Shown: positions 1 to 1,812 of the stretch, piece after piece | Layout: each line of letters begins with the position of its first letter | Position numbering within the stretch: the stretch's first letter is position 1 | Assembly (NCBI RefSeq): GCF_003334255.1 | Contig: NZ_QOWU01000148.1 | Strand: one strand, 5' to 3' | DNA: 1,812 nucleotides | Origin: Escherichia coli | GTDB taxonomy: Bacteria; Pseudomonadota; Gammaproteobacteria; Enterobacterales; Enterobacteriaceae | The notes under the pieces: model-generated | What the model was told of the DNA's origin: nothing | The model's input: only the letters and a program-made list of their open reading frames with translations | Databases searched by the model: none | Program-made: the position numbers and the translations under genes

Positions 1-1
1 G

Positions 2-1812
2 AAGCACAAACGCGAGAATCCGCCCACGGTGGTATCGGAAGCCATGGCAGAACTTCGCGCCCTGCCCTCGTTTCTTGCCAGTCCGCTCATCCGGGACCTG
101 GCTCGCCTGAGCCGCAAACAGGAGAGCGCACGCCGGGAAGGGCTTAAGAATAACAGCGCATATGCGGCGGATAACTTCGTTCGTCATGGGCTGCGTGCCC
201 GCCTGAAACGTATCGCCCGTGTGAATGAACGCTTTGCCACCCCGGCCTTTAAGGCCACCGCCGCCCGCGAACGGCTGGATGAACTGCTTATACTGCCGCA
301 GCTGAGCCGTGACGAAATCCAGCACCTTGCCACCCTGACCGCCACCGCGTTTTCCGCCGCACTGGAGCGCGCATGTGATGAGATCATCGAAAAGACCGGC
401 AGGGGTGACGATGACCTGTTCACCTGGTTACTGACCTACCAGTCACTGGCACACATGGCGTTAAAACTGGGTATCACGCCACCCTGCTGGCCGTCGCTGG
501 AAATCAGGCCAGACCGCCGCACCGCCCCCAACCCGGAACGGGTGCCGGGTGCGGTCATGCGCCTTTCCTGTGCGACATGGTGGAACAGTCAGTTAAGACA
601 CCTCCGGGACATCTGGCGTGAAGAGCTGTTACGCGCCGCAGGTCTGGTGTCACGTAAGACATCGGTATATATCAGCCATGAAGCGTTACTGGACTGGCGC
701 GAAAAACGCCAGCGCACCCGCGATTTTCTGAAGGCCTGGGACATCGAGAACGAAGAGGGAGAACGGTTCAGCCTTGAGGATATCTACTGGGCAGGTCTCT
801 CTAATCCGCGTAACCGCCGTAACGAGATGATGACCTGCGCCCGGGGAATGGAGCAGGTCGCCGAAGCACGCGGCGACGTGGCGTTTTTCGTCACCGTCAC
901 AGCCCCTTCCCGTTTTCACAGCGTGAACGATGACGGCAGTCTGAACCCGAAATACTGCGGGGCAACGGTACGCGATGCCAGTGATTATCTGGTTTACCGC
1001 TTTTTCGCCGCCGTCCGCAGGGCCATCGACAAGGCCGGGCTGGGCTGGTACGGCGTGCGCACAGTGGAGCCCCACCACGACGGTACACCGCACTGGCACA
1101 TGCTGGTATTCACCAGCCAGGAAAACGAAGCCCGTATCACTGAAATCATGCGCAACGCCGCCATCAGGGAGGACCGCGCAGAGCTGGGTGATGATATCTC
1201 CCCGCGTTTTAAATGCGAAAAAATCGACCCGGCAAAAGGCACACCGACAAGCTATATCGCGACCTATATCGGTAAGAACCTGGACGCCAGCGCCTTCATG
1301 GGAAATGACCCGAAAACCGGCAAACCTTACATCGATAAGGAATCAGGCAAAACCATGGCCGAAACCGTGGAGAACGCCATCGGCTGGGCAGGCCTTCACC
1401 GCATCCACCAGTTCCAGTTCTTCGGTATCCCGCCCCGCCAGGTATGGCGCGAACTCCGCCGCCTTGCCGGGCAGATGGCCCGTAACCCGACTGCCCCACA
1501 GCGTCTGGACCATGACGACATTGACGCCATACTGGCCGCCGCCGACGTGGGATGTTTTGCCACCTATATCACCCGCCAGGGTGGTGTGCTCATTCCCCGC
1601 AACACGTACCTGGTCCGCACCGCATACGAAACTGCCGAAGAGGCCAACGACTACGGCGAATTCCCGCAACGCATTTACGGCGTCCGCGCCCCGTTACTCG
1701 GGGAGCGCTACACCATATGCACCCACCCGGACACCTGGAAACTGGTCAGAAAAGAAGCGAAAGCCGACAACAGCACGGACGAGGATTTTGACGTTGGGGG
1801 CGGCTTCGCCGC
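2..1812 (+). CDS. Replication initiation protein, rolling-circle HUH nicking endonuclease of the phage P2 gpA / 186 A family ('replication endonuclease'); partial, open at the 3' end and probably at the 5' end
   Basis: Seen in sequence: frame 2 is open for 603 consecutive codons with no stop (manual translation begins KHKRENPPTVVSEAMAELRALP and ends TDEDFDVGGGFA). It contains, in canonical order, motif 1 FFVTVTAP (881-907), the HUH motif HWHMLVF (1091-1111) and the paired-tyrosine motif YIATYIGK (1253-1276). Every ORF in the supplied track overlaps this frame on the other strand or in another frame. Established knowledge: this motif order with a Y-x-x-x-Y catalytic pair is characteristic of superfamily I rolling-circle initiators (phiX174 gpA, P2 gpA). 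Inference: P2 gpA is ~760 aa with the catalytic tyrosines around residue 450 (from memory); the pair here is at window codons 418/422, so the true start is likely a few tens of codons upstream and the stop a few hundred nt downstream. An in-frame ATG at 44-46 is a possible but unproven start. Confidence 0.9.
1091..1111 (+). other. HUH metal-binding motif (His-hydrophobic-His followed by hydrophobic residues) within the replication initiator CDS
   Basis: Codons cac tgg cac atg ctg gta ttc translate to H-W-H-M-L-V-F in the CDS frame, preceded by EPHHDGTP. The position between motif 1 and the tyrosine motif matches the canonical layout of rolling-circle Rep proteins. Confidence 0.75.
1253..1267 (+). 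other. Paired catalytic tyrosine motif (Y-x-x-x-Y) of the rolling-circle initiator
   Basis: Codons tat atc gcg acc tat translate to Y-I-A-T-Y, followed by I-G-K-N. Two tyrosines separated by three residues and followed by a lysine two residues later match the phiX174 gpA / P2 gpA active-site arrangement (established knowledge; alignment not run). Confidence 0.7.

Follow-up and report, generated by a model that had tools for sequence, protein, structure and literature searches.

Bacteriophage P2 is the best-described counterpart of the locus considered here. Its A protein nicks the replication origin, attaches covalently to the 5' end by a tyrosine, and primes rolling-circle synthesis. The nick lies inside gene A itself: the GenBank annotation from which we took its position (AF063097, rep_origin) places it at 29892 (gene nt 1859), with 427 nt left to the stop codon. 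The genes after A in the P2 record are orf91, tin, and old, and cos comes next. The interval between gpA and gpQ is a diversity hotspot of E. coli P2-like phages, with 1,650 arrangements among 18,150 loci (Rousset et al. 2022, PMC9122126). An origin inside gene A and a cargo hotspot between A and Q are both already-known P2 biology, and it is against this background that we describe a further A gene and the region that follows it in its relatives.

The window, as we call the whole stretch of 1,812 nt of Escherichia coli DNA that was analyzed, is an ordinary fragment from the interior of gene A of a P2-like prophage of this species. Its frame +2 is free of stop codons throughout (603 codons, by a six-frame stop count), a run whose chance at the base composition of the window we estimate at ~3e-9. 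Stops number 9, 15, and 23 in the three minus-strand frames, and the two other plus-strand frames (1 and 3) are likewise stop-rich. A mechanical list of open reading frames contains short ORFs only, because the real ORF runs off both ends of the window. The product matches the Phage_GPA family (PF05840, E = 2.9e-106) over model positions 1 to 320 of 321 and retains both catalytic motifs (Table 1). The sequence HWHML lies within the metal-binding motif, which aligns column for column with P2 gpA, and the Y-x-x-x-Y spacing is present (YIATY, nt 1253 to 1267, aligned with YIAKY of P2). The role of the two tyrosines in P2 gpA goes back to Odegrip and Haggard-Ljungquist (2001), as cited in PMC3986222. 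Judged by these motifs, the window protein is a gpA-type HUH rolling-circle initiator, with nicking and covalent attachment as its predicted activities.

Table 1. Features of the 1,812-nt window, with positions counted from its first letter
Feature	Position	Strand	Basis
P2-family replication initiator (gene A, "replication endonuclease"), internal fragment, codons 86-688 of 837	2..1810	+	Open frame, Phage_GPA, homology
Phage_GPA (PF05840) catalytic domain, window residues 104-429	311..1288	+	Pfam
HUH metal-binding motif EPHHDGTPHWHMLVF	1067..1111	+	Aligns with P2 gpA EPHHDGTPHWHMMLF
Twin-tyrosine motif SYIATYIGKN	1250..1279	+	Aligns with P2 gpA GYIAKYISKN (both active-site tyrosines)
Variable linker patch adjoining the 5' side of the origin, encodes KEAKADNSTDEDFDVGGGF	1751..1807	+	Comparison with L010, L009, and L002-L005
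Left part GCGGCTTCGCCGC of the P2-type origin core	1800..1812	+	Alignment of P2, P88, and this lineage
Terminal 77-mer common to a second, ~80%-identical A allele (L002 type); first mismatch at nt 78	1..77		Exact sharing
Terminal 77-mer common to the L002, L003, L004, and L005 alleles; mismatch at nt 1735	1736..1812		Exact sharing

A megablast search of the window against 5,426 complete E. coli genomes found matches in 62, every one of them chromosomal and annotated as replication endonuclease, and 14 genomes matched at 95 to 99% identity. The nearest complete genome is that of E. coli DETEC-S792 (98.8% DNA identity), in which the match (locus L001, 15001 to 16809) is enclosed by a replication endonuclease CDS at 14744 to 17257 (2514 nt, 837 aa). 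With this CDS as reference, window nt 1 corresponds to gene nt 255 and nt 1812 to gene nt 2066. Loci L001, L006, L009, and L010 are 98.5 to 99.2% identical to the window, the window protein has 99% amino acid identity to the 837-aa proteins, and nt 1 to 1750 are 100% identical to L010, where the A allele is full length (837 aa). The preliminary description had taken this gene for a P2-type gene A that is interrupted by the window end, and the frame open to its last complete codon, the Phage_GPA domain, the two aligned motifs, and the 837-aa homologues all bear this out. The end of A that it expected a few hundred base pairs past position 1812 is placed, by homology only, 448 nt past the window end, as in L001, L006, L009, and L010. 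Its further statement that nothing accessory lies within the window is also right, with no Rfam match at E<=1 and repeats at chance level, but nt 1740 to 1812 hold a linker patch and the edge of an origin.

The surroundings of the gene, as seen in relatives, are those of a P2-like prophage, as that description had also supposed. In close relatives the order is integrase, an HTH repressor (C-like), Cox, DUF4761, DUF4754, an exonuclease, a Dam methylase, a derepression protein, and A, and A is followed by several small genes, the portal gene Q, terminase, gpO, the P2-family capsid, and gpM. P2-like synteny (int, repressor, cox, early genes, A, then Q, P, O, N, M, and L) was present in every relative examined. 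This prophage lineage is one without a close isolate among 50,697 phage records: megablast of the window against these records gave zero matches, and the best tblastn matches (57% amino acid identity) were to Citrobacter phage Shae_phiSM and Escherichia phage P88 (Xuanwuvirus, Peduoviridae). Both phages have DUF4761, DUF4754, and the derepression protein ahead of A, as in this lineage, and their origin core is the same. However, the A-Q interval of P88 holds ParM and a partition protein and not the set of SSB and membrane protein found in relatives of the window. P2 gpA itself (AAD03306.1) belongs to the same Pfam family, has the same HUH and twin-tyrosine motifs, and has the origin in the 3' quarter of its gene; we estimate its amino acid identity to the window protein at ~44%, P2 being outside the tblastn matches listed. 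It is shorter (761 aa, compared to 837 aa here), the protein of this lineage having a longer N terminus and a different C-terminal tail. The 19-nt cos of P2 is also unlike that of this lineage, the best match in the A-Q interval of L009 being unconvincing (6 of 19 positions mismatched). Promoter and terminator scans gave background levels.

The last nucleotides of the window reach into the putative origin. Residues 665 to 688 of A, encoded by nt 1740 to 1812, would form a poorly conserved linker that runs into the phage origin inside the gene. Alignment of P2, P88, and this lineage gives a conserved origin core, GCGGC...GCCGC.CCT.GGA.TC.TG.CAATAACTGT, which encodes AAP(R/W)(S/T)(P/R)(V/G)NNC and is invariant across all 13 loci examined in this lineage, including those with divergent flanks. 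The base aligned with the P2 nick is gene nt 2072, or virtual window position 1818, ~443 nt before the A stop codon. As in P2, the origin thus appears to sit inside gene A in this lineage. The nick by the A protein is predicted to fall within ...GCCGCACCTT/GGACTCGTGGCAATAACTGT, 6 nt past the window end, and the predicted cleavage target is GCCGCACCTTGGACTCGTGGCAATAACTGT. At this site A would nick the origin, bind the 5' end covalently via its active-site tyrosine, and prime rolling-circle synthesis. We found no sign of an origin hairpin, as the region folds no better than shuffles (z = -0.30).

The linker patch adjoins the origin. Here 16 of 57 nt differ from L010, whereas nt 1736 to 1812 are 100% identical to L009 and to the lineage of L002 to L005, which is only ~80% identical overall. 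The patch exists in two main forms. The usual partner of the backbone of the window is RKPENEDRTDEGFDVECGF, whereas the window encodes KEAKADNSTDEDFDVGGGF, a form that among 837-aa proteins belongs to the other lineage (P0050/P0051). On the backbone of the window this form otherwise occurs only in P0001, and P0016 is a hybrid; the crossover in L009/P0001 lies upstream of nt 1733 and that in P0016 inside the patch. The last 54 nt of the window match four IMG/VR contigs, all of the ~80%-identical lineage. The 57-nt patch has very probably been acquired from the other lineage through short-tract recombination. Because the form of the other lineage is found in both the window and P0001, and a hybrid in P0016, short-tract exchange next to the origin happens repeatedly. 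That the A nick promotes this exchange is speculation.

Both ends of the window coincide with a change in what is shared with a second A allele. The only 77-mers of the window that occur in L002 are those starting at nt 1 and nt 1736, and the identical prefix with L002 and the identical suffix with L002 to L005 are each exactly 77 nt long; this is the signature of a k=77 graph edge. In SPAdes, 77 is a common choice for the largest k. Both A alleles are present, in separate prophages, in each of the two complete genomes nearest to the window (DETEC-S792 and JNEC-KY204), and when the two DETEC-S792 prophages are compared by shared 77-mers, a similar stretch of A remains unique. We infer from these coincidences that the window represents a single edge of a k=77 de Bruijn graph, namely the stretch of this allele that a second, related P2-like prophage in the sample does not share, bounded on either side by one shared 77-mer. 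Its end would thus be technical, a break in a short-read assembly. A repeat-bounded edge of this kind would account for the odd length of the window and for the failure to extend it, and in a host with two related prophages the window would be a dead end for extension.

What lies beyond the window can be read from relatives. Their A-Q interval is 2450 bp in the closest of them, and at least 80% of it is present in 22 complete genomes. In L001, L006, L009, and L010, the A stop codon overlaps the start of a 134-aa gene (phrog_14984), which is followed by a 56/69-aa gene (phrog_14672), a gene for a 112-aa winged-helix protein (phrog_142, "Ren-like exclusion protein"; MarR family according to PGAP), and a gene for a 105-aa SSB-like protein, all co-directional with A. 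Next comes an island of 40 to 44% GC with a convergent gene for a 178-aa membrane protein, and then the portal gene. The 134-aa gene was considered as a homologue of P2 orf91 and ruled out, as the comparison shows no homology (E = 18). On the model of these relatives, the window would be followed by the A stop codon, four small co-directional genes, and a small variable slot, which in the closest relatives holds the convergent low-GC gene for the 178-aa protein, and then by the cos region and portal gene Q.

The content of the slot varies. In other relatives it contains the 178-aa protein gene with a 167-aa ORF, DUF4760 with the same 167-aa ORF, a TumE/HVO_A0114 toxin-antitoxin pair, ogr only, or nothing, so that relatives of this A gene show six arrangements or more. 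The slot is a real hotspot in this lineage, and the suggestion that the locus downstream of A is variable agrees both with these arrangements and with Rousset et al. 2022 (PMC9122126). A relative with an ogr-only or empty slot comes close to what the preliminary description would have counted against its proposal of inserted cargo; some relatives are of this kind and others carry cargo. As differences in cargo are already seen among relatives at 97% A identity, the similarity of the A gene is no reliable predictor of it. The resemblance to the tin/old locus of P2 lies in the position adjoining cos, in content that varies among close relatives, and in low-GC cargo transcribed opposite to A. In contrast to P2, however, the cargo of relatives is a single small membrane protein, a small toxin-antitoxin pair, or nothing, and four extra lineage-conserved early genes stand between A and the slot.

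The 178-aa protein of the slot (WP_000801013.1), outside the window, has a GTG start, set by its homologues, and belongs to a small family with 46 representatives at 50% identity among 1.84 billion proteins. Members have three helices in the N-terminal part, predicted to be transmembrane, and two invariant cysteines mark a C-terminal domain of ~75 aa. The confident AlphaFold model (mean pLDDT 93.3) has three helices followed by a five-stranded beta domain (beta-barrel). The positive-inside rule and the conserved pair of cysteines suggest a cytoplasmic N terminus and a periplasmic beta domain. Structure searches of the PDB returned nothing specific, and a Foldseek search of AFDB50 returned uncharacterised membrane proteins of Enterobacterales and Pseudomonas, along with one distant match to an S-2TMbeta (SMODS-associated 2TM beta-strand-rich) effector, A0AAU6U6D7 (E = 3.5e-7, TM-score 0.59/0.50). 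Both proteins have transmembrane helices at the N terminus and a small beta-rich domain after them, but identity is 17% and three helices are predicted here, compared to two. None of 27 family members has a Pfam match, and no cyclase or other partner gene adjoins the 178-aa gene in the neighbourhoods examined. We therefore rejected membership in S-2TMbeta, there being no profile match and no cyclase neighbour, and treat the similarity as a resemblance of fold only. A 51%-identical Salmonella homologue occupies the same slot between A and the portal gene in different P2-like prophages, and a 41%-identical homologue is chromosomal with no phage genes nearby.

An alternative view of this interval, advanced in the preliminary description, is that a novel anti-phage or accessory system lies just beyond the window, in the tin/old position. 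It draws on the documented hotspot and the variation of the slot, and on the 178-aa protein, which is uncharacterised, is encoded in a low-GC island in the orientation opposite to A, like tin and old, and turns up again in this slot in unrelated P2-like prophages of Salmonella. However, the interval of the closest relatives holds four small genes and this one membrane protein, and the slot measures at most about 1.1 kb in the four nearest. The defence prediction proposed for the downstream ORFs, run on those of relatives, returned no recognised system: PADLOC gave no match for the 178-aa, DUF4760, 167-aa, and TumE proteins of the slots, the regulators in the A-Q interval had only weak winged-helix or CARF-like PADLOC matches, and the cargo proteins had no meaningful match in PADLOC, NCBIfam, or Pfam. 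Homologues of tin or old were absent from the A-Q intervals of relatives by annotated products, and PADLOC was negative for them. No recognised defence system is thus present downstream of A in close relatives. The arrangements are, moreover, already catalogued: Table S5 of Rousset et al. 2022 lists them as "hypothetical + SSB + hypothetical...", and WP_000801013, WP_001537149, and WP_096122283 occur in that table only and not in the table of tested systems (PMC9122126). Since the slot content is outside the window and seen in relatives only, we regard a new system at this place as unlikely.

Other alternatives concern the window itself. The junction at nt 1736 to 1750 might be a chimera made by the assembler or by PCR and not a real allele, as the exact combination of backbone and patch occurs in none of the collections searched. 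Junction-spanning patterns of 53 and 37 nt had no matches in IMG/VR, JGI metagenomes, or GTDB genomes; the junction is absent from complete E. coli genomes (the best is 93.5% identical over nt 1690 to 1812); and six guessed full-length chimeric A proteins are absent from a set of 15 billion proteins. However, the two parental forms share just 15 nt (1736 to 1750) at the junction, far below the usual k, so it cannot be an artefact of the graph, and a de Bruijn join would need reads spanning both sides. A real allele is also favoured by natural recombinants that arose independently in this region (L009/P0001 and P0016), and we consider a chimera improbable. Still harder to credit is a physical DNA end, such as that of a nicked replicative intermediate, which the closeness of the predicted nick to the window end might suggest: the window stops 6 nt short of the nick and not at it, and the 5' end has the same 77-nt sharing with no origin nearby, so that one assembly explanation covers both ends. 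We give equally little weight to the idea that the gene is a decaying remnant (pseudogene) of a cryptic prophage. Only a fragment of it is visible, and the neighbouring 178-aa gene is frameshifted in one relative (L001), but the frame is open for all of its 603 codons with both catalytic motifs intact, the backbone is identical to the full-length allele of L010, and relatives carry complete P2-like gene sets. We therefore hold it very likely that the account as a whole is correct, that is, a P2-like gpA that reaches the edge of its origin, cut out as a k=77 assembly edge, with an exchanged patch and with downstream content as in its relatives.

For the biology of this prophage lineage, the only remaining lead is the small conserved family of membrane proteins in the slot, outside the window. 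One proposal combines the two less conventional ideas, namely that the 178-aa protein is a new single-gene superinfection-exclusion or abortive-infection protein and, separately, that the patch is a gene-conversion hotspot between co-resident prophages started by the A nick; taken jointly, these seem doubtful to us, if somewhat less so than the alternatives weighed above. On its own, a role in exclusion or abortive infection is plausible for the 178-aa protein, which may be viewed as a candidate for such a function.

The prophage lineage represented by the window seems to be without a sequenced phage isolate, since megablast of the whole window against 50,697 phage genomes returned no record similar enough to match, even though at least 62 complete E. 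coli genomes carry the lineage. The best protein identity to the window among the phage records was 57% (P88 and Shae_phiSM). The early region of related prophages, 5' of gene A, includes a gene for a ParE-like small protein adjoining those for a Dam-type adenine methylase and a 3'-5' exonuclease. These three genes are accessory content. Two antisense ORFs lie within gene A, one of 137 aa and the other of 108 aa; ORFs of this kind are expected by chance in a coding region of 60% GC.

Coordinates of features in the window and in loci of related prophages (L-numbers)
Feature	Location	Strand	Remark
ParE-like, Dam-type methylase and 3'-5' exonuclease genes	L009 6444-6671 and 6668-7648; L001 11183-12387		early region
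Antisense ORF, 137 aa	window 686-1099	-	within gene A
Antisense ORF, 108 aa	window 1343-1669	-	within gene A
Linker patch	window 1751-1807; L009 12005-12061; L010 2776-2832		immediately 5' of origin
112-aa winged-helix protein	L009 13131-13469	+	PGAP name "MarR family"
105-aa SSB-like OB-fold protein	L009 13502-13819	+	
TumE-family and HVO_A0114-family proteins	L012 2775-3523		toxin-antitoxin-like pair; A-portal slot of a relative
DUF4760 (phrog_2284) and 167-aa ORF (phrog_5091)	L013 2857-3354 and 4075-4578		A-portal slot of a relative

Downstream of A, the gene for the 112-aa winged-helix protein, which matches phrog_142 ("Ren-like exclusion protein"; E = 1.1e-28), is kept in both A lineages. 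The 105-aa SSB-like protein scores 45.9 bits, below the NCBIfam cut-off of 53.95, and is not long enough for the usual acidic C-terminal tail. Its gene holds in L009 the position occupied in P2 by tin, the target of which is the SSB of T4.

The cargo of the slot between A and the portal gene in the closest relatives is the 178-aa membrane protein. In E. coli DETEC-S792, the copy in the window-type prophage carries a 1-nt frameshift and is unannotated (L001 18562-19703 compared with L009 13819-14960), and an intact copy resides in a second prophage (L015 8369-8905). A 51%-identical homologue occupies the same slot in Salmonella P2-like prophages (L016-L018 5001-5522), the A genes of which are different (818-840 aa), and a 41%-identical homologue is chromosomal, flanked by sucrose-utilisation genes and a LysR-family regulator (L019). 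PADLOC gave no matches for the alternative cargo proteins of this slot in L012 and L013 (TumE-family, HVO_A0114-family, DUF4760 and 167-aa).

Comparison of the loci and proteins of relatives revealed two main forms of the linker patch, distributed independently of the A-gene backbone, and natural hybrids such as the A protein P0016, with RKPENEDRTDEGFDVGGGF. This pattern suggests that prophages residing in one host have repeatedly exchanged the patch, which directly adjoins the predicted nick site, by gene conversion over short tracts.
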